Below are positions 4,590 to 14,661 of a DNA stretch of 64,000 nt, in pieces (position 1 is the first letter of the stretch; each line of letters opens with the position of its first letter). The notes beneath the pieces were generated by a model that ran no database searches, was not told the origin of the DNA, and was given only the letters and a program-made list of their open reading frames with translations. Position numbers and translations under genes: made by a program. This DNA comes from Shigella phage ESh18. The stretch is from the sequence record ON528728. One strand, written 5' to 3'.

Positions 4590-6358
4590 AAAAGCCACAA
4601 GAAATGCAAACGATGCGTAGAAAAGTTATTTCAGATAATAAACCAACACAGGAAGCGGCTAAATCCGCTTCTAATACTTTATCTGGTCTTAATAACATTT
4701 CTACAAAATTAGATGATGCTCAAGCTGCCTCTGAATTAATAGCTCAAACTGTCGAAGAAAAATCGAATGAAATAGTTGGAGCAATTGACAACGTAGAAAG
4801 CGCAGTGAGTGATACTACCGCAGGTTCTGAGTTAATTGCCGAAACTGTTGAAATTGGCAATAATATCAATAAAGAAATAGGCGAATCACTCGGAAGCAAA
4901 TTAGATAAATTAACGAGTTTATTAGAACAAAAAATTCAGACAGCTGGAATTCAACAGACTGGAACGAGTTTAGCAGTAGTCGAAAATGCTATTCCTGTTA
5001 AAGTTGTTGAGGATGATACAGCTGAATCTGTGGGTCCTTTATTACCGGCCCCTGAAGCAGTTAATAATGATCCTGACGCTGATTTTTTCCCTACCCCTCA
5101 GCCAGTTGAACCCAAACAAGAATCGCCAGAAGAAAAACAGAAAAAAGAAGCATTTAACTTAAAATTATCTCAAGCTTTAGATAAATTAACGAAGACTGTT
5201 GATTTTGGATTTAAAAAATCCATTTCAATTACTGATAAAATATCAAGCATGCTATTTAAGTACACCGTCAGTGCTGCTATTGAAGCTGCTAAAATGACTG
5301 CAATGATATTGGCTGTTGTTGTTGGAATAGACCTGTTGATGGTTCATTTTAAATACTGGTCAGATAAATTTTCAAAAGCCTGGGATTTATATAGTGGCAA
5401 CTTTACTAAATTCTCTAGCGAAACCGGAACATGGGGTCCTTTATTACAGAGCATCTTTGATTCTATTGATAAAATTAAACAACTTTGGGAAGCGGGAGAT
5501 TGGGGTGGATTGACAGCAGCTATTGTTGAAGGACTCGGAAGTGTTCTTTTTAATTTAGGTGAACTTATTCAATTAGGTATGGCTAAATTATCTGCAGCAA
5601 TTCTTCGAGTCATTCCTGGTATGAAGGATACTGCTGATGAAGTAGAAGGAAGAGCATTAGAAAATTTCCAAAATTCTACTGGAGCATCTCTCAATAAAGA
5701 AGACCAGGAAAAAGTTGCAAATTATCAAGATAAACGAATGAACGGAGACCTTGGTCCGATAGCAAAAGGATTAGATAAAATTGCTAATTGGAAAACTCGT
5801 GCATCTAATTGGATTCGTGGGGTTGATAATAAAGAAGCACTAACTACCGACGAAGAACGTGCAGCAGAAGAAGAAAAATTAAAGCAACTTTCACCTGAAG
5901 AAAGAAAAAATGCTTTAATGAAGGCTAATGAAGCTCGGGCCGCGATGATTCGTTTTGAAAAATATGCTGATTCGGCTGATATGAGTAAAGACTCAACGGT
6001 TAAATCAGTTGAAGCTGCTTATGAAGACCTTAAAAAACGAATGGATGACCCGGATTTAAATAATTCACCGGCAGTTAAAAAAGAACTTGCTGCTAGATTT
6101 TCTAAAATTGATGCTACTTATCAAGAGCTCAAGAAAAATCAGCCTAATGCCAAACCTGAAACTTCTGCTAAATCGCCAGAAGCAAAACAAGTCCAGGTAA
6201 TAGAAAAGAACAAAGCACAGCAAGCTCCTGTTCAACAAGCATCTCCTTCAATCAATAATACTAATAATGTTATTAAGAAAAATACTGTCGTTCATAATAT
6301 GACACCCGTAACGAGCACGACTGCTCCTGGTGTATTTGATGCGACTGGAGTTAATTAA
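4586..6358 (+). CDS. 29: gp29 baseplate hub / tail length determinant
   Basis: 590 aa as in T4; ATGA overlap with gene 28. Confidence 0.9.
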   Translation: MKKPQEMQTMRRKVISDNKPTQEAAKSASNTLSGLNNISTKLDDAQAASELIAQTVEEKSNEIVGAIDNVESAVSDTTAGSELIAETVEIGNNINKEIGESLGSKLDKLTSLLEQKIQTAGIQQTGTSLAVVENAIPVKVVEDDTAESVGPLLPAPEAVNNDPDADFFPTPQPVEPKQESPEEKQKKEAFNLKLSQALDKLTKTVDFGFKKSISITDKISSMLFKYTVSAAIEAAKMTAMILAVVVGIDLLMVHFKYWSDKFSKAWDLYSGNFTKFSSETGTWGPLLQSIFDSIDKIKQLWEAGDWGGLTAAIVEGLGSVLFNLGELIQLGMAKLSAAILRVIPGMKDTADEVEGRALENFQNSTGASLNKEDQEKVANYQDKRMNGDLGPIAKGLDKIANWKTRASNWIRGVDNKEALTTDEERAAEEEKLKQLSPEERKNALMKANEARAAMIRFEKYADSADMSKDSTVKSVEAAYEDLKKRMDDPDLNNSPAVKKELAARFSKIDATYQELKKNQPNAKPETSAKSPEAKQVQVIEKNKAQQAPVQQASPSINNTNNVIKKNTVVHNMTPVTSTTAPGVFDATGVN

Positions 6359-6366
6359 GGAATAAT

Positions 6367-7461
6367 ATGGCAATTGTTAAAGAAATAACTGCTGATTTAA
6401 TTAAAAAGTCCGGTGAGAAAATTTCAGCCGGACAGAGTACTAAATCAGAAGTAGCAACTAAAACATACACTGCCCAGTTTCCAACTGGGCGTGCTAGTGG
6501 TAATGACACTACAGGGGACTTCCAGGTAACAGATCTATATAAGAATGGATTATTATTTACTGCATACAATATGTCATCTAGGGATTCTGGAAGTCTTAGA
6601 TCGATGAGATCTAACTACTCTTCTTCATCTTCGAGTATTTTAAGTACAGCTAGAAACACTATTAGTAGTACAGTATCAAAACTATCAAATGGATTAATAT
6701 CAAATAACAATTCAGGAACAATAAGTAAAGCTCCTGTCGCAAACATTCTTTTACCGAGATCTAAATCTGATGTTGATACATCATCACACAGATTTAATGA
6801 TGTTCAAGAAAGTCTTATCAGCAGAGGCGGAGGTACTGCTACTGGTGTGTTAAGTAATATTGCTTCAACTGCAGTGTTTGGGGCACTGGAAAGTATAACA
6901 CAAGGTATAATGGCTGATAATAATGAACAGATTTATACGACAGCCAGAAGTATGTATGGTGGTGCTGAGAATAGAACTAAAGTGTTTACATGGGATTTGA
7001 CTCCACGTTCAACAGAAGATTTGATGGCTATTATTAATATCTATCAATATTTTAACTATTTTTCTTATGGTGAAACTGGTAAATCTCAATATGCTGCTGA
7101 AATAAAGGGGTATTTAGATGATTGGTATCGTTCTACGTTAATTGAACCTTTATCTCCGGAAGACGCAGCTAAAAATAAAACACTATTTGAGAAAATGACA
7201 TCAAGTTTAACTAACGTTTTAGTAGTTTCAAACCCGACAATTTGGATGGTGAAAAACTTTGGCGCAACATCTAAGTTTGATGGAAAAACGGAAATATTTG
7301 GTCCATGCCAAATACAGAGCATCAGATTTGATAAAACGCCTAATGGTAACTTTAACGGATTAGCTATTGCTCCAAACCTCCCTAGTACATTTACTCTTGA
7401 GATTACTATGAGAGAAATTATCACGTTAAACCGTGCTTCTTTATATGCGGGGACTTTTTAA
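6367..7461 (+). CDS. 48: gp48 baseplate tail-tube junction protein
   Basis: 364 aa as in T4; synteny. Confidence 0.85.
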   Translation: MAIVKEITADLIKKSGEKISAGQSTKSEVATKTYTAQFPTGRASGNDTTGDFQVTDLYKNGLLFTAYNMSSRDSGSLRSMRSNYSSSSSSILSTARNTISSTVSKLSNGLISNNNSGTISKAPVANILLPRSKSDVDTSSHRFNDVQESLISRGGGTATGVLSNIASTAVFGALESITQGIMADNNEQIYTTARSMYGGAENRTKVFTWDLTPRSTEDLMAIINIYQYFNYFSYGETGKSQYAAEIKGYLDDWYRSTLIEPLSPEDAAKNKTLFEKMTSSLTNVLVVSNPTIWMVKNFGATSKFDGKTEIFGPCQIQSIRFDKTPNGNFNGLAIAPNLPSTFTLEITMREIITLNRASLYAGTF

Positions 7462-8426
7462 TGTATTCTTTAGAGGAATTTAATAATCAAGCAATAAACG
7501 CAGATTTTCAACGTAATAATATGTTTAGCTGCGTTTTTGCGACAACTCCATCAACTAAAAGCTCTTCGTTGATAAGTTCAATTAGCAACTTTTCTTATAA
7601 TAACTTGGGTCTAAATTCAGATTGGTTAGGATTGACTCAAGGCGATATTAATCAGGGAATTACCACGCTAATTACTGCTGGCACACAAAAACTGATAAGA
7701 AAATCAGGGGTTAGTAAATATCTTATTGGTGCCATGAGTCAACGTACAGTTCAAAGTTTATTGGGTTCATTTACAGTTGGTACATATTTAATTGACTTCT
7801 TTAATATGGCATATAATTCATCTGGATTGATGATATACTCTGTAAAAATGCCAGAGAATAGATTATCCTATGAAACTGACTGGAACTATAACTCTCCTAA
7901 TATTCGTATAACTGGGAGAGAATTAGACCCTTTGGTTATTTCATTTAGAATGGATTCAGAAGCTTGTAACTATCGTGCAATGCAAGACTGGGTTAACGCT
8001 GTTCAAGACCCAGTAACTGGACTGCGTGCTTTGCCACAAGATGTTGAGGCAGATATTCAGGTTAATCTTCATGCTCGTAATGGATTACCTCATACTGCAG
8101 TGATGTTCACCGGATGCATTCCAGTGTCAGTGAGCGCTCCTGAGCTATCATATGATGGAGATAACCAAATAACTACATTTGATGTTACTTTTGCGTATAG
8201 AGTCATGCAGGCTGGGTCGGTTGATAGACAAGCTGCGCTTGAGTGGCTTGAATCTGCTGCTATAAATGGCATTCAAAGCGTTCTCGGAAATAGTGGAGGT
8301 GTTACTGGACTATCTAATTCGCTTTCACGACTTAGTAGATTAGGAGGAACTGCGGGAAGCATTTCAAACATTAATACTATGACGGGAATTGTCAATTCGC
8401 AAAGTAAAATATTAGGAGCAATATAA
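7461..8426 (+). CDS. 54: gp54 baseplate tail-tube initiator
   Basis: 321 aa; synteny after gene 48. Confidence 0.85.
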   Translation: MYSLEEFNNQAINADFQRNNMFSCVFATTPSTKSSSLISSISNFSYNNLGLNSDWLGLTQGDINQGITTLITAGTQKLIRKSGVSKYLIGAMSQRTVQSLLGSFTVGTYLIDFFNMAYNSSGLMIYSVKMPENRLSYETDWNYNSPNIRITGRELDPLVISFRMDSEACNYRAMQDWVNAVQDPVTGLRALPQDVEADIQVNLHARNGLPHTAVMFTGCIPVSVSAPELSYDGDNQITTFDVTFAYRVMQAGSVDRQAALEWLESAAINGIQSVLGNSGGVTGLSNSLSRLSRLGGTAGSISNINTMTGIVNSQSKILGAI

Positions 8427-8430
8427 CAAT

Positions 8431-8460
8431 GGGGACCTTTCGGTCCCCATATTTTTATTT
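8431..8460 (+). terminator. factor-independent terminator after gene 54 (possibly bidirectional)
   Basis: GGGGACC-TTTC-GGTCCCC stem-loop 8431-8448 followed by ATATTTTTATTT. Confidence 0.75.
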
Positions 8461-8745
8461 ACGGAATGAAATAAAAGCAGCAACTGAAGCAACTAAACTG
8501 TCTTCAATATAAACTTCAATTTTTACCGGAGCTTCTGACTCAAATTTACCTGTTACTACACCTTGGAAAATGCTTTCAGTCTGCTCTGGCTTTGAAAAAT
8601 TTTCAGAAGGAAAAATTCCGAACTTTTTATCTGTTCCAAAAATTTTGATAAATTCATCATAAACTGCTTCATTAAAAGCATTATCAGCAGGAATAACGCC
8701 TTCAACTACAAGTTCTTGACCTAAAAAGCGCAAAGAAGATTTCAT
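8455..8745 (-). CDS. hypothetical protein, 96 aa
   Basis: ORF track; SD GAGGA before ATG; own early promoter upstream. Confidence 0.6.
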   Translation of the reverse strand: MKSSLRFLGQELVVEGVIPADNAFNEAVYDEFIKIFGTDKKFGIFPSENFSKPEQTESIFQGVVTGKFESEAPVKIEVYIEDSLVASVAAFISFRK

Positions 8746-8776
8746 TTTGTGTTCCTCATGTTATGTCAGTAAAACT

Positions 8777-8806
8777 ATTGTAACACAACACGAGGGACTT
8801 GTAAAC
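8777..8806 (-). promoter_or_regulatory. early (sigma70-type) promoter: -35 GTTTAC, 18-bp spacer, -10 TACAAT
   Basis: Minus strand GTTTACaagtccctcgtgttgtgtTACAAT; core identical to the promoter at 24124-24153. Confidence 0.6.
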
Positions 8807-10863
8807 TACATCTTGAACTTTTTAGACATTCCGTTGATGTTAACCAAAGAAGCCAAGATTTGAGAAACTTCGTTTTCCTCTTCTTTTGATTCTTCTACAA
8901 GGAATTGATTAAACCCAGCCATTGGACGAACTTCACCAGTTTCCATTAGATGATCGCCATCATATACCGATTCTTCTAATTGTTCAGAAGGAGGAACGAT
9001 TGTGCCTTCGATTAGATACTTATTATAAGCAGTTTCTTTCATCATGTACGTGCTCACTTTATTAATCTTCAGCAAAATTCCACGCGGTAAAATAACTTCA
9101 GCTTCTGATGGAAATCCTGATAAATGACCTGGAACGATAACTTTGATTCGCTCAGCCCCTTTAATTACCATACCTACGCTAGTTTCAGCGTCTTCATTCG
9201 CATAAGCAGAGTGACTACCCATATGCATTAAATCTTCAGCATCAACAGAACCTTCTCCTTCACCAGAAAATACTGCACCGGAATCATCTAGAGCCATATA
9301 GTTTTTACCATGCTCACCGAAGATGTTTGGTTTAAGCGACGTGGATACAAAGTTCTTGAAATAGAACATTTTGTTTTCAATATTATGACGTAAAGTTTTA
9401 AAAGTAACTTCTTGTCCACGATAAAGCGTAGTTCCTGGAGGAAGAACTGAACCTTTAGCGAATGCAGAATCCATTGTCTCGATGTGTTTAATAGCTCGTT
9501 CCATGTATTCTTCACGGGTAGAATCTGGTTTACCCAAGAGGAACGAGTTCATTTCAACATATGAATCTGCACAATAATCTTCAATTACATCAGACTCAGC
9601 CTGAGTTAATCCTTTTGGAGTTACTTCGGTGCTTGCATATTCATATGCCTGGGCAGCAGATTCATTAATCAATTTATAAATGCCATTCATGACAAATTGA
9701 ATAATAGCTGTCTTTTCATCTGGCGTAGCTTTAGAACCTTTAACTAAATCATTAATAATTTTCTTAATAACATCAAAGCTATTAGAAATATTAATGTCAG
9801 CAAGATCGCTTAAAATTTTATCAGTTTTATAATCAAAGAATTCTTTATTCTTTAAATATTCTTGAGAACCTTGATATGTTATATCGCTCTGCAACTTGAT
9901 AGATGGATCACGTAAACGTGCATGGGCCAATGCAATATGATTTCGGAAGTTTTCTAGTTCATAATCGCTAGATTTAAAACGAGAAGCACTCCTCATACCA
10001 CCGATAGCTCCTTTGCTGAAGTTTGAACCAATCTGGATAACGCCAGAGTTCATCGGACCTTCTGCTTTATATACCGGAACTTTAGATTCAAACTCTTGAT
10101 ATTTCTTAGCAGCGAAGCTATCACCCTGAAGTGAAGCATCGACAGTAGAATATTGAGCTTGTGCTGCTAATCGACGACTAATTTTAGTTTTTTGAATAAC
10201 AGCTTGATCCGTGCGCTTATCATTTTCTAAAGCAATAGAAGCAGCAACAGCGACAGCTTTAGGAACAGCATTACCTGTTTTAACATCTACATAAACATCA
10301 CCGACCTTCGATTCAACTTTTGTGAATAACTCAGTTGAAATAGGAGGTACACCTGGAATGTCTTCTAAATTGGCATTTTTACGGTAAACCATAATATATG
10401 CATACTTTTTATCATAGTCCCAGATTTCCTTTAAAAGAACATATCGACCTGCTCCTTTAGTACGTACTAAACGGTCAGCAATAACTTGCATTTGACGAGC
10501 AGCGCCATTTGTTTTACTTTTTAGTACGCGGAATAGGCATGCGTCAATTTTATACTGTTTCATTGTTTGAAGAGCAGTATCAAAAACAGCATTAATGACG
10601 CCAATTGGATTTCCACCCAAGTTTCTAAGCTTAACCAGCGATAATTTCTCGTTGACACCTATCATTACGATATGCATCATTTTATCGCCTGGCTTAACGT
10701 TTTTATTCGTATCACCGCCAGAGGTGTATGTACAAAATCTAAATCCAGGAAGCACGCTTTCTTCACCGGCTTGAATAGCAAAAATTTGTGGTATTTTATG
10801 CTTAGGATTTAAGTTAACAACCGGCGCCGAAGCGCCGTCAAATAATTCTGTAATAAGTTCCAT
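8806..10863 (-). CDS. Alt-like ADP-ribosyltransferase paralog (685 aa)
   Basis: N-terminal ~240 aa about 65% identical to the adjacent alt product, including MELITELFD; C-terminal motifs YRGQ, FVSTSL, EAEVILPRG. Confidence 0.8.
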   Translation of the reverse strand: MELITELFDGASAPVVNLNPKHKIPQIFAIQAGEESVLPGFRFCTYTSGGDTNKNVKPGDKMMHIVMIGVNEKLSLVKLRNLGGNPIGVINAVFDTALQTMKQYKIDACLFRVLKSKTNGAARQMQVIADRLVRTKGAGRYVLLKEIWDYDKKYAYIMVYRKNANLEDIPGVPPISTELFTKVESKVGDVYVDVKTGNAVPKAVAVAASIALENDKRTDQAVIQKTKISRRLAAQAQYSTVDASLQGDSFAAKKYQEFESKVPVYKAEGPMNSGVIQIGSNFSKGAIGGMRSASRFKSSDYELENFRNHIALAHARLRDPSIKLQSDITYQGSQEYLKNKEFFDYKTDKILSDLADINISNSFDVIKKIINDLVKGSKATPDEKTAIIQFVMNGIYKLINESAAQAYEYASTEVTPKGLTQAESDVIEDYCADSYVEMNSFLLGKPDSTREEYMERAIKHIETMDSAFAKGSVLPPGTTLYRGQEVTFKTLRHNIENKMFYFKNFVSTSLKPNIFGEHGKNYMALDDSGAVFSGEGEGSVDAEDLMHMGSHSAYANEDAETSVGMVIKGAERIKVIVPGHLSGFPSEAEVILPRGILLKINKVSTYMMKETAYNKYLIEGTIVPPSEQLEESVYDGDHLMETGEVRPMAGFNQFLVEESKEEENEVSQILASLVNINGMSKKFKM
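10822..10837 (-). other. GC-rich C(UUCG)G hairpin inside the coding region of the Alt paralog
   Basis: Plus CGGCGC-CGAA-GCGCCG; in the mRNA a GGCGC-UUCG-GCGCC stem-loop about 30 nt after the start codon. Confidence 0.5.
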
Positions 10864-10866
10864 GAT

Positions 10867-12960
10867 TTATCCTTGAACGAACTTGTAAGGCATGTTTGTA
10901 ATATCTATGCAAGACGCAATAATTCCAAGAGATGATTCTACTTTCTGTTTAACATTTGATGAAACAAATGATGCAAAGTCAACTCTGTCTTCTATTTCAA
11001 TATCACCTGTCATTGCAACTACTTCGCCGGTTTCCATTAAACGGTCACCGTCATAAATTACCGATTCGGTGAGTTCTTCGGTGGTCATAACTTCAGCTTG
11101 AATGAGTTTTGTATTATTAGACGTGGTTCCGTCATTATTAGAAGCATCAGTTATTTTATTAACTTTGACCATCAATCCGCGCGGTAGAATAACTTCGGCT
11201 TCTGTTGCTATTCCGAGACTTCCTGGATATACAACATTAACTTTATGAGCTCCATCAATTGCCCATCCTATTTGAACTTTAACGTATTCAGGATTTTCTT
11301 TATACGCTCTTATTTCGTTTGGATTAATAGTTATTCCTTCTTCATTTTTATCAACTGTTAATTCATTGCGAGCTTCTGGTTCTAAAAGACCAATACCAGC
11401 ATGTGTAATTCCAAAACGTCCAAAAATGATAGGAGTTAAAGAAGTAGATACAAAATTTCTGAAATAGAACACTTTATTTTTAACTAGTGCTTCGTATATA
11501 GGAGCAGTCATACTTTGAGCACGATAAACTGTAATGCCTTCCGGTATGCGGTCACCATTTTCAAAAGCTGAATCTAAATTATTTATAGCAGATTCAATTT
11601 CTTTTTCACTCATTACATCATATCGTTCTGGATTGTAACGACCTAAAAGAAGATTATTAATGTCTGTATATCCTGAACCACAATATTCTCTAATACCTCG
11701 CTTTTGTGATGGAGTATATTTAGAACCATCACGGGCAATAGTAATATCAATCATTGGACCAGCACCAATTCCAGAAAAGCTATAAATCATTCGTTTGAGG
11801 AATTTAGTTTTTGCTGCATTCCATGCATTTTTAGTTATTTCTCCCCAGACTTCATCTGGTTGCCCTTTACGAGTTTTATTATGTTTATCAAGCCAATTAT
11901 CTTTATATTCTTCAAAGAATTTATTAACAGCTGCTGCGTATTTCTCTAAACATTTTATTGAAGTAGTTGGTTCATTTTTGATTGCGTTAAAAATTACATC
12001 TTTAATTTTTTCTGAAACTTCATCAACCTCACTTTTTGAAAAGAATTTATAGTCATAGTGAAGTTCATTCGCAGTTCCTTCGGCAATAATTTTTGCTGCC
12101 TTAGTTTTAGAAGCTAACGAATTAATTCCAAGCTTCATTTCTTCTGCTTCGGGAATTAAAGGAGCGGTAGCAGGTTTATTGAAATTAGCTGCGGTAGATT
12201 CATACTTCTGGAATAATTCACTTTCAAATCTAGAAGATTCCAATGATTGACTTTGCGCAATTGCTCTACGTGAAATTTTAACTTTAACGATTACAGCTTG
12301 GTCAGAACGTTTATCATTTTCTTGCGCAATAGATGCTGCAATTGCCTCATTTTTAGTTACTTGAGCTCCAGTATCTTTATTGATATAAACATCACCGACC
12401 TTCGATTCAACTTTAGTAAAGAGCTCGGTACTAATTTCCGGAACTCCTGGAATGTCTTCTAGTGATACATTTTTGCGATGTATAAGAATATATGCATACT
12501 TTTTATCGTAATCCCAGAGTTCCTTAAGAAGGACGTATCTGCCACCTGAACGACTGCGGATAAGTCTATCAGCAATAAGTTGAATTTGACGAGCTTGACC
12601 AGCAGTTTTAGACTTAAGAATACGGAGCATGCAGGCATCAATTTTATACTGACGCATCGTTTGCATTGCAACAGTAAAAACTGAATTGATATAATTAATT
12701 GGGCTTGGACCAAGACCTTTTAATTTAGCAATTGAACCTTTAGCAGTTAATGTAAAAGGAACAATATGCATCATTTTATCGCCCATCTTTAAATCACGAT
12801 TAGTATCACCTCCAGATGTATAGGTACATAAACGAAAGCCTGGTTGTTCAATTGCATCATCAACATGAACTGAAAAAATTTGTGGTATTTTCTTCTTTGG
12901 ATTTAAGTTTGTAATCGGAAGAGTAGTATCTTCGTCAAATAATTCTGTAATAAGTTCCAT
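10867..12960 (-). CDS. alt: Alt ADP-ribosyltransferase (packaged RNAP-modifying enzyme)
   Basis: N-terminus MELITELFDEDTTLPITNL recognised as T4 Alt; R-S-E motifs YRAQ, FVSTSL, EAEVILPRG; start placed at second ATG (12960), 5 nt after GAGG. Confidence 0.85.
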   Translation of the reverse strand: MELITELFDEDTTLPITNLNPKKKIPQIFSVHVDDAIEQPGFRLCTYTSGGDTNRDLKMGDKMMHIVPFTLTAKGSIAKLKGLGPSPINYINSVFTVAMQTMRQYKIDACMLRILKSKTAGQARQIQLIADRLIRSRSGGRYVLLKELWDYDKKYAYILIHRKNVSLEDIPGVPEISTELFTKVESKVGDVYINKDTGAQVTKNEAIAASIAQENDKRSDQAVIVKVKISRRAIAQSQSLESSRFESELFQKYESTAANFNKPATAPLIPEAEEMKLGINSLASKTKAAKIIAEGTANELHYDYKFFSKSEVDEVSEKIKDVIFNAIKNEPTTSIKCLEKYAAAVNKFFEEYKDNWLDKHNKTRKGQPDEVWGEITKNAWNAAKTKFLKRMIYSFSGIGAGPMIDITIARDGSKYTPSQKRGIREYCGSGYTDINNLLLGRYNPERYDVMSEKEIESAINNLDSAFENGDRIPEGITVYRAQSMTAPIYEALVKNKVFYFRNFVSTSLTPIIFGRFGITHAGIGLLEPEARNELTVDKNEEGITINPNEIRAYKENPEYVKVQIGWAIDGAHKVNVVYPGSLGIATEAEVILPRGLMVKVNKITDASNNDGTTSNNTKLIQAEVMTTEELTESVIYDGDRLMETGEVVAMTGDIEIEDRVDFASFVSSNVKQKVESSLGIIASCIDITNMPYKFVQG

Positions 12961-12983
12961 CATAGCCTCTCTAGTGTTTATTC

Positions 12984-12991
12984 TATTTATA
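12984..12991 (-). promoter_or_regulatory. late promoter TATAAATA upstream of alt
   Basis: Minus-strand TATAAATA about 21 nt upstream of the alt ATG. Confidence 0.6.
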
Positions 12992-12996
12992 AAATT

Positions 12997-13014
12997 AAAG
13001 GCCCGAAGGCCTTT
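12997..13014 (-). terminator. C(UUCG)G hairpin AAAGGCC-UUCG-GGCCUUU after the 62-aa ORF
   Basis: 7-bp stem with UUCG loop on the minus transcript, followed by AAUUUUA; identical 18-mer recurs at 59415-59432. Confidence 0.55.
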
Positions 13015-13201
13015 AGTAATCTAGTGGTAAGAGAGTACGATATATTTCAAACTTTGGTCCTTTTTCATAGGCATCAAATGTTTCTGTAAATTTATTATAA
13101 GCGTATGCATCTACAAATTCGAGAATGACTTGTGATACAGAAGTAGAAACATCTCCGCCTTCTTTTTGAGCAATGACAATTGTTTCTAAGTAAGCTTTCA
13201 T
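13013..13201 (-). CDS. hypothetical protein, 62 aa
   Basis: ORF track; ATGA overlap with gene 30 stop. Confidence 0.5.
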   Translation of the reverse strand: MKAYLETIVIAQKEGGDVSTSVSQVILEFVDAYAYNKFTETFDAYEKGPKFEIYRTLLPLDY

Positions 13202-14661
13202 AAACCAGTTACCTCATGAAAATCACCAAATACATCCTCGAATGTATTAGCTTTAGTTTTATCTTCACGTAAACGAATCGCAATCGGAAGAAATAATTTA
13301 ACGTAATCAGTGCGGCCATCAGATTTTAACCAACCGTTGCATTCGCACTCTAGAATTTTTCCAATATAATAATTTTGGTTTTCCATAATGCGAGTACGGT
13401 CAAGTTCATGTGATTTTACGCCGGCTTTGTCTTTTAAGCCTGAACCAGCATTTACTTTAATTTTTCCACACTCTGACTCAAGAATAAATCCACCTGCTTT
13501 AGTAGGGTCTTTACGGTGAGGATAAATTCCTACAATTTTTAAATCAACATCAATTACTTCTTTAAATTTATAGAGATTTTTTGAACGGGCATTTTCCCAT
13601 AACCCATCAACGTTTTTGAGAATAATACCTTCAAGACCTTGATCAATATACTTTTTGTAAATTACCTTAGCTTCATCTAGGTTATTTACTACCTGGTTTT
13701 CAATTAAAATTACTTTATCATATCCTGATGTCATTTGTTCTAGTTTAGAAAAACGTACATCATATTTTAAACGAAACGCCGGAAGACCGTATATTTCTAC
13801 CAACGGTACATAATCCCAGACCTGAAACTTCATGCATTGTGCTTCTTTTTCAGAAATGGTTCCCTTTAAAGATTTATTGGCGATGCCATTAGATGCAGTA
13901 CGAGATTCAGCTACTTCGGCGAATTCTTTAGCTTTACTAATTTCAGGATAAGCATCAAAAAGAAAATCTAGGCCTTCTGGCTCCTTTTTAACTTGCTCAT
14001 GGTATACCAATTCGCCATCAATTAACACACCTTCTGGATGAATCTGGCGGGCTTCAGCGGTCATTTTGATTAACTCTTCTTTGAGAAGGTCTAATCCTAG
14101 ATATTCATTACCAGCTCGTGATAAAAGACGAACATCATCTAATTCATCACCTCTGACTTCGGCAAAACACCGAGCTCCATCAGCTTTTAATTGGGCAAAG
14201 GCTGGAAATTTGATATTCTTATTAATGCCTTTTTCATCATAAGAACTTGCCAGCATTTGAGGTTGTTCAGGAATTAAACCTGGCCAAACTTTGTTTGCAA
14301 TAGATACTGAAGCACCGCATTCAAGGTCTCGCATCATCACCCGACGCAAAACTTCAACATCATCCTTTTTACCATCGGTGATATATCCAGTTAATTCTTC
14401 AATTGCCGCATTTCCAGTCAATTTCCGAGTAGCTAATGTGAATTCAATGAAGTCAAGCATATCGGTAAGAGTCAACATTCCAAAACTCTGGGTAGCAATA
14501 CCAGGTTTAGGCCATTTCTTGATATAATACTGTAACCCACGAGAATAAGTTAGACGATATACTCGTTTAAGCAATTCATTATCTTTATTCTTTTCAAGAA
14601 TTGCTTGCTTCTGCTTAGTTGAACCAATAGATGCTATTTCGTTCAGAATTTTAAGAATCAT
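13198..14661 (-). CDS. 30: ATP-dependent DNA ligase gp30
   Basis: 487 aa as in T4 DNA ligase; synteny. Confidence 0.9.
   Translation of the reverse strand: MILKILNEIASIGSTKQKQAILEKNKDNELLKRVYRLTYSRGLQYYIKKWPKPGIATQSFGMLTLTDMLDFIEFTLATRKLTGNAAIEELTGYITDGKKDDVEVLRRVMMRDLECGASVSIANKVWPGLIPEQPQMLASSYDEKGINKNIKFPAFAQLKADGARCFAEVRGDELDDVRLLSRAGNEYLGLDLLKEELIKMTAEARQIHPEGVLIDGELVYHEQVKKEPEGLDFLFDAYPEISKAKEFAEVAESRTASNGIANKSLKGTISEKEAQCMKFQVWDYVPLVEIYGLPAFRLKYDVRFSKLEQMTSGYDKVILIENQVVNNLDEAKVIYKKYIDQGLEGIILKNVDGLWENARSKNLYKFKEVIDVDLKIVGIYPHRKDPTKAGGFILESECGKIKVNAGSGLKDKAGVKSHELDRTRIMENQNYYIGKILECECNGWLKSDGRTDYVKLFLPIAIRLREDKTKANTFEDVFGDFHEVTGL

Follow-up and report, generated by a model that had tools for sequence, protein, structure and literature searches.

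Two tandem Alt-type ADP-ribosyltransferase genes, alt and a conserved downstream paralog, in the T2/RB32-type alt region of Shigella phage ESh18

The window analysed here is a stretch of 64,000 nucleotides (nt) from the genome of Shigella phage ESh18 (record ON528728), in which two large genes of the Alt family of ADP-ribosyltransferases (ARTs) stand in tandem on the minus strand. The upstream gene is a T2-type allele of alt (10867–12960, 697 amino acids), and the downstream gene (8806–10863, 685 amino acids) is its paralog and the orthologue of alt.-2 of phage RB32; we refer to it by a name of our own, AltB. Both were identified from the list of open reading frames (ORFs), BLASTP, Pfam and alignments, and AltB also from a structural model. 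A first-pass annotation of the DNA had described two adjacent minus-strand ORFs of 697 and 685 codons, 3 nt apart, and the ORF list and our reading of the sequence agree: the alt stop codon TAA (10867–10869) is separated from the AltB ATG (10863) by the three nucleotides ATC. The outer limits given there, 8806 and 12963, are correct at the first position and 3 nt too long at the second for a gene of 697 codons, the ATG of which lies at 12960. As called, the alt ORF (10867..12963, 698 amino acids) begins MMELIT, with in-frame ATGs at 12963 and 12960, and the records of relatives begin alt at the second of these, which gives 697 amino acids and the opening MELITELFD. Because the extra ATG (12961–12963) is missing in phage UFV-AREG1, 12960 is likely to be the true start; a GAGG box is also better spaced to it than to 12963.

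The two genes are related from end to end. Their first 28 nt are identical, both proteins open with MELITELFD, and 159 of the first 237 aligned residues are the same (67%), close to the earlier estimate of about 65% over some 240 residues. Over the full length, BLASTP gives 41% identity at an E value of 1e-157, far beyond chance, with only ~10–45% identity in the middle and ART regions (~35–45% for the ART domains alone). Alt consists of an N-terminal Tevenvirinae ADPRT module (residues ~1–240), a variable helical middle, an ART domain and a C-terminal tail, and AltB has the same architecture. The Pfam families PF26846 (Tevenvirinae_ADPRT) and PF03496 (ADPrib_exo_Tox) are precomputed on near-identical relatives; PF03496 scores 128.7 bits for Alt and 73.2 bits for AltB, both above its curated gathering cutoff of 23.4 bits. 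The PHROG family phrog_802, 'Alt-like RNA polymerase ADP-ribosyltransferase', matches both proteins end to end (Alt, 3e-272 over residues 1–696; AltB, 5e-256 over residues 1–685), and NCBIfam holds no model for either. The description of the downstream ORF as a diverged duplicate encoding an Alt-type ART is thus well founded on the BLASTP and PF03496 matches.

The R-S-E triad and the C-terminal YDGD(R/H)LMETGE motif reported earlier for both ORFs were all located. In Alt, YRAQ lies at residue 479, FVSTSL at 503, EAEVILPRG at 587 and, in the tail, YDGDRLMETGE at 636; in AltB, YRGQ lies at 481, FVSTSL at 505, EAEVILPRG at 587 and YDGDHLMETGE at 634. The catalytic arginine follows an aromatic residue in the first strand (Y479-R480 in Alt, Y481-R482 in AltB), the S-T-S motif is contained in FVSTSL (residues 503–508 of Alt, with S505-T-S507; residues 505–510 of AltB, with S507-T-S509), and the arginine-specific E-x-E motif stands at the end of the ARTT loop as E587-A-E589 in both proteins, with Phe584 in the loop of AltB. 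R482, S507, S509, E587 and E589 (AltB numbering) are invariant in all 17 family members aligned. In T4 Alt, the substitution E577A, at a Glu of the ExE motif in the authors' numbering, abolished activity (PMC11404850). Beyond the family, the Arg and ExE regions align to VYRRS and EYE of CDTa in a single-sequence HMMER search, and to VYRG and QYE of the C3-like transferase PDB 4xsg when a 17-sequence family profile is used. In an AlphaFold (AF2) model of AltB (pLDDT 76.8, pTM 0.71), the predicted ART fold is confident. Alt and AltB thus both carry a C3/VIP2/iota-type catalytic core (Arg, S-T-S, E-x-E).

Both genes are intact. Seven AltB orthologues were compared (the window, RB32, RB51, UFV-AREG1, G9062, T2 and PYPS2T); all have 685 codons and no internal stops, and the ratio of non-synonymous to synonymous substitution rates (dN/dS) is 0.02–0.06 in each of the 21 pairs. 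By domain, it is 0.019 in the N-domain, 0.055 in the middle, 0.031 in the ART domain and 0.066 in the C-terminal tail, and the whole AltB protein is under strong purifying selection. These values bear on the idea that AltB is a decaying or non-catalytic copy, either a pseudoenzyme or a purely structural core protein, on its way to the state of alt.-1 and alt.-2 in phage T4. The truncation of AltB in T4-type genomes would fit such a course, as would the GenBank records of ESh17, RB33, RB27 and T2, which call the product a 'hypothetical protein' only. However, with a full-length ORF in seven of seven orthologues, a dN/dS of 0.03 in the ART domain, catalytic residues that are all invariant and a confidently predicted ART fold, we regard decay as highly improbable.

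Most Tequatrovirus genomes contain AltB. No fewer than 401 phage records cover 80% or more of the 1,345 bp specific to AltB, and its protein cluster at 90% identity has 772 member sequences; comparing these 401 records that contain the full body with 91 that have the T4-type junction described below, about four fifths of the Tequatrovirus records with the locus keep AltB. A search of T-even and RB genomes for the second copy, which the first-pass annotation had suggested, finds it in RB32, RB51, T2, RB27, RB3 and others. The window itself is a segment of a Tequatrovirus genome. Positions 8400–13250 share 99.7% identity with Shigella phage ESh17 and ~97% with T2, RB32, RB27, RB3 and many others, the identity of other Tequatrovirus records at the alt locus is mostly 95–99%, and the first 25 kb of the window show the same pattern as the alt region.

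While AltB hardly varies from phage to phage, the alt gene upstream of it exists as two sharply distinct alleles, a T2-type of 697 amino acids and a T4-type of 682–684 amino acids. Alt of the window is 98–100% identical to Alt of T2 and RB32 over the whole alignment and about 72% identical overall to T4 Alt. The earlier statement that the upstream ORF matches T4 Alt is accurate for residues 1–240 (~99% identity) and for the C terminus (86–96% over the last ~100 alignment columns), but fails for residues ~240–620, where identity is 24–71%. This pattern looks like a cassette-like mosaic. AltB accompanies either allele class, since G9062 and PYPS2T combine a T4-type Alt with AltB.

The duplication that gave rise to the pair appears to be old. 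In the N-domain, where the paralogs are most alike, the synonymous divergence (dS) between Alt and AltB is ~1.3, which is saturated. In Salmonella phage vB_SalD_ABTNLS3, a Dhakavirus, the corresponding locus (4919–10992 of the compared stretch) holds a tandem array of three full-length alt paralogs, 40–43% identical to one another. AltB shares 51% identity with the copy that occupies its position, and T2-type Alt shares 67% with the middle copy. Because copies in this array match both AltB and Alt, the duplication most likely predates the split of Tequatrovirus and Dhakavirus.

The state of the locus in T4 differs from what had been stated in the first-pass annotation, namely a single alt-like gene: T4 has one intact alt and a truncated remnant of AltB. 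Its alt gene is followed by two small ORFs, alt.-1 (61 amino acids, NP_049810) and alt.-2 (67 amino acids, NP_049809), which the T4 annotation says 'reflect an old duplication of the first part of gene alt'. Both products match AltB residues 1–~115 almost exactly, and the DNA (5066–5451 of the compared T4 stretch) is collinear with AltB at 95.6% identity. Two lesions account for the present form. An A5 run in AltB codons 54–55 (10700–10704, minus strand) has lost one A in T4, and the resulting frameshift produces the stop of alt.-1 and the restart at alt.-2. A 9-bp direct repeat, CTAAAAAGT, occurs at 10516–10524 (the left copy, at the upstream endpoint) and at 8817–8825 (the right copy, at the downstream endpoint), both on the minus strand, and the 1,699 bp between its copies, including the ART domain and reaching to 9 nt before the AltB stop, are deleted in T4. 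At least 91 database records share this deletion junction. The PHROG families of the small ORFs also match AltB better than Alt (alt.-1, 2e-40 versus 1e-21; alt.-2, 1e-37 versus 2e-19). These lesions and matches together argue that alt.-1 and alt.-2 are what is left of a full-length AltB and not a partial duplication. As the remnant is no more diverged than the rest of the locus, the loss of AltB in T4 would seem to be recent. The RB32 record speaks of an 'apparent insertion in alt.-2', which has the polarity backwards, the change being a deletion in T4. A preprint on phage contingency loci, consulted because the T4 frameshift lies in an A-run, makes no mention of alt.

Gene order and putative expression signals around the pair are as follows. 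Upstream on the minus strand lie gene 30 (DNA ligase, 13198–14661) and alt.1 (13013–13201, Pfam Phage_blade); downstream, the next gene 3' of AltB is alt.-3 (8455–8745, minus strand, 96 amino acids, DUF5498), beyond which gene 54 is encoded on the plus strand. The pair thus occupies the place of the Alt-like Tevenvirinae ARTs, between gene 30/alt.1 and alt.-3/gene 54. There are no tRNA genes within the window. Just after alt.1, a terminator-like hairpin, TAAAGGCCTTCGGGCCTTTA, followed by a T-run (12996–13015, minus strand; 8 pairs, 4 of them GC, with a T-rich tail) is kept in RB32, RB51, AREG1, G9062, T2, PYPS2T and T4. It is followed by the T4-type late promoter box TATAAATA at 12984–12991 on the minus strand, ~21 nt upstream of the alt start, a match to the T4 late-promoter consensus that had been noticed before and that keeps a constant distance to the alt start in 7 related phages; in T4, 5 nt are inserted. 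The motif as such is not enriched within the window (11 occurrences against 9.5 expected), and its position is meaningful because it comes directly after the hairpin and is conserved in relatives. From its match to the T4 late-promoter consensus we infer that it serves as a late promoter.

AltB would be translated from a ribosome-binding site of its own. A Shine–Dalgarno-like AAGGA (10870–10874, minus strand) lies within the last alt codons, 6 nt before the AltB ATG, and the junction (AAGGA, 6 nt, ATG and the 3-nt gap from stop to start) is identical in eight of eight phages, T4 included. As had been proposed, AltB has no promoter directly before it; the gap between the genes is too short to hold one, and the two are most simply read as co-transcribed from the late promoter ahead of alt. 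From 12996 to 8450, the minus strand showed no terminator-like site, and the first one downstream of the alt late promoter is a hairpin between alt.-3 and gene 54 (8429–8450), which is terminator-like in both directions. The most economical reading is therefore one late transcript spanning alt, AltB and alt.-3, of which alt.-3 would probably be the last gene. A second TATAAATA occurs inside alt (11580–11587, minus strand), 717 nt upstream of the AltB start; this motif match is kept in five other T2-type alleles examined and is not found at that position in T4-type alleles. We considered it as a requirement for AltB and rejected it as such, because T4-type alleles that carry AltB do not have it there. 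A sigma-70 or T4-early-like promoter sequence (TTTACA-17-TACAAT with an extended TG; 8777–8805, minus strand), identified by consensus match only (10 of 12 positions), comes immediately past the AltB stop and precedes alt.-3.

What is known of T4 gpAlt provides a model for the fate of the two proteins. T4 gpAlt is a prohead-core protein present in ~40 copies, from which gp21 removes a small N-terminal peptide (PMC9958956); it is injected along with the DNA and modifies RNA polymerase by ADP-ribosylation, the alpha subunit being a target known only for T4 Alt (PMC9958956, PMC5512222). By analogy, Alt and AltB would both enter the prohead core through their shared N-terminal module, and the gp21 protease would trim a short N-terminal peptide from each at the conserved MELITE|L. 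In 17 of 17 family sequences, residues 4–6 form an [IL]-x-E motif, and residues 1–10 of AltB are predicted to be disordered in the AF2 model. Both proteins would then be injected with the DNA and, using NAD+, would ADP-ribosylate arginines of host proteins. We consider packaging and injection of AltB likely on these grounds.

The alternative is that AltB is an active ART but no virion protein, and acts late in the producing cell, modifying it from within as ModA and ModB do. Since its N-domain is only 67% identical to that of Alt, binding to the prohead core could indeed have been lost. Yet this is the domain with the lowest dN/dS of the four (0.019), the [IL]xE at residues 4–6 is retained, and the N-domain occurs almost only in proteins of Alt architecture: a search of 1.84 billion representative proteins returned it in no more than 69 clusters, nearly all of them of 600–712 amino acids with an ART, and it is confined to relatives of T4-like phages. 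Natural chimeras, moreover, join an Alt N terminus to an AltB body within this very domain. In a 110-kb metagenomic contig (ENA ERZ27282683 k99_7153), the sole alt gene is such a chimera (686 amino acids; 5001–7061 of the compared contig stretch), located between alt.1 and alt.-3 and composed of alt from nt 1 to ~150 and of AltB from ~155 onward; its Alt-type N terminus is shared by proteins P0005 and P0007. Unequal crossing-over between tandem paralogs would be expected to yield a gene of this kind. For these reasons, an AltB confined to the producing cell seems unlikely to us.

The N-terminal module also has two distant matches of another kind, proteins P0183 (485 amino acids, E 8e-8) and P0184 (541 amino acids, E 8e-7), with no Pfam ART in the remainder; they might represent the module fused to another effector.

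At the other end of the proteins, the pattern YDGDxL(M/L)E(T/S)GE is nearly invariant, although it lies in a tail (residues 630–685 of AltB, window 8809–8976; residues 632–697 of Alt) that is predicted to be disordered (AlphaFold pLDDT 30–37). Such conservation would suit a short linear motif, which might be a further site for gp21 (L-M-E|T) or serve in binding to the core. Cleavage at the C terminus was considered as an explanation for the larger size difference between precursor and mature gpAlt. We set aside cleavage at L-M-E|T (AltB residues 639–641) as speculative, as some members have F-x-E there and a review gives N-terminal cleavage only (PMC9958956).

As regards targets, AltB would probably modify a set of host proteins that is different from that of Alt or overlaps with it only in part, because the ART domains are only ~35–45% identical and the ARTT loops differ. 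At position -3 of this loop, three residues before the first catalytic Glu, the AltB lineage has Phe or Tyr, as in C3 and iota toxin, whereas the Alt lineage has Ile, Pro or Gln; in the window, Ile in Alt stands against Phe584 in AltB. If AltB were instead a redundant extra dose with the same targets as Alt (for example, RNA polymerase alpha), kept for gene dosage only, one would expect much of what the pair has in common, that is, the shared architecture, a core (EAEVILPRG, FVSTSL) that does not differ between the two and a probable common transcript. The rest of the evidence fits less well with dosage: dS between the paralogs is saturated, the mark of an old duplication, identity in the middle and ART regions has fallen to ~10–45%, the ARTT loop difference is lineage-specific, and the near invariance of AltB next to two alt alleles points to separate roles. 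We find redundancy quite unlikely.

Taken together, the most probable reading is that the locus is a standard T2/RB32-type alt region encoding two tandem, anciently duplicated Alt-family arginine mono-ADP-ribosyltransferases. A single late message would begin at TATAAATA (12984–12991), cover alt, AltB and alt.-3 and end at the hairpin (8450–8429), AltB would be translated from its own AAGGA, starting 3 nt past the alt stop, and both products would be packaged and injected, with different or partly overlapping targets for AltB. Several points weigh against parts of this reading. The step concerning different targets draws solely on the divergence of the sequences and on a single position in the loop. 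The TATAAATA at 11580–11587 could be an internal promoter in T2-type alleles, or a chance occurrence in an AT-rich genome. The PF03496 score of AltB is weaker than that of Alt (73 versus 129 bits), and a phmmer search with AltB alone against PDB sequences returned nothing at E <= 0.01, its PDB relatives having been reached with the 17-sequence profile and with fold searches instead. T4 and at least 91 records do without AltB, which makes it dispensable under at least some conditions. Finally, our literature search found no experiment or proteome showing AltB to be made, packaged, injected or active, and no virion proteome covering it; a Klebsiella phage virion proteome reports one ART and has no bearing on AltB (PMC13119998).

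More tentatively, and with slightly less than even confidence, we propose that most T-even (Tequatrovirus) phages deliver two different injected ARTs, and that AltB is a fourth ART beside Alt, ModA and ModB, with targets of its own such as a defence or translation factor. On this proposal, AltB would have gone unstudied because T4 is a natural AltB-null mutant after a recent 1.7-kb deletion. That rare natural phages have the chimera as their only alt gene suggests that the catalytic body of AltB could serve as the one enzyme injected. Host takeover by ADP-ribosylation in T-even phages is known almost entirely from T4, which has no functional copy of the conserved AltB. Should AltB be injected and act on substrates of its own, T2/T6-type phages would possess a takeover or anti-defence activity that is invisible to T4 studies.

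The tandem pair itself is already known. RefSeq names both full-length genes 'Alt-like RNA polymerase ADP-ribosyltransferase' (RB32 alt and alt.-2, RB51, Shfl2, Sf22 and others), and Nolan et al. reported in 2006 on duplicated alt genes of T4-like phages, among them T4 alt.-1/alt.-2 and a full-length second copy in 44RR (PMC1524935); the finding is therefore a correct reading of a known feature. As for studies of the second alt copy, whether functional, proteomic or genetic, our literature search yielded only that paper and general reviews. The novelty implied in the first-pass annotation does not hold, given the RefSeq names and the at least 401 records that carry AltB. It had also named two observations that would speak against it; a downstream ORF lacking the catalytic positions is not what we found, all of them being present, and a T4 annotation that already carries and explains the pair does largely exist in alt.-1/alt.-2. 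As a sequence feature the pair is of little weight, being annotated in hundreds of genomes and belonging to duplications described in 2006. What we add is minor, and comprises the exact lesions in T4, the purifying selection on AltB, the T2-/T4-type allele structure, the single-gene chimera and the ARTT-loop difference.

Among known systems, ModA and ModB of T4 are small, early-expressed enzymes without the Alt N-terminal module. They resemble Alt and AltB as phage ARTs of the R-S-E clade acting on host proteins (PMC5512222), and the literature describes them as unpackaged and deployed later in infection (PMC5512222, PMC9503650). The C3, VIP2, iota, CDTa and Vis toxins, which share PF03496, differ in being secreted bacterial proteins with other delivery domains and only 14–25% identity. 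T4 Alt (NP_049811, gpAlt) is the positional orthologue of the upstream gene of the window, and has in common with the pair the N-terminal module, the R/STS/ExE core, YDGDxLMETGE, the predicted late promoter and the gene 30/gene 54 locus; AltB differs from it in being only ~41% identical overall and in the aromatic ARTT residue, which is absent from Alt. The targets of T4 Alt (RNA polymerase alpha and others) are established for that protein, not for Alt of the window or AltB. Dhakavirus and Aeromonas phage 44RR likewise have tandem full-length alt paralogs at the same locus, with differences in copy number and an identity to AltB or Alt of only 33–67%. RB32 alt.-2 (YP_803136) and its orthologues in T2, RB51, Shfl2, Sf22, RB27, RB3 and others are the same gene as AltB: RB32 alt.-2 also lies between alt and alt.-3 and encodes 685 amino acids, and it differs by 6 amino-acid-changing differences (dN 0.0037) and in nothing material.

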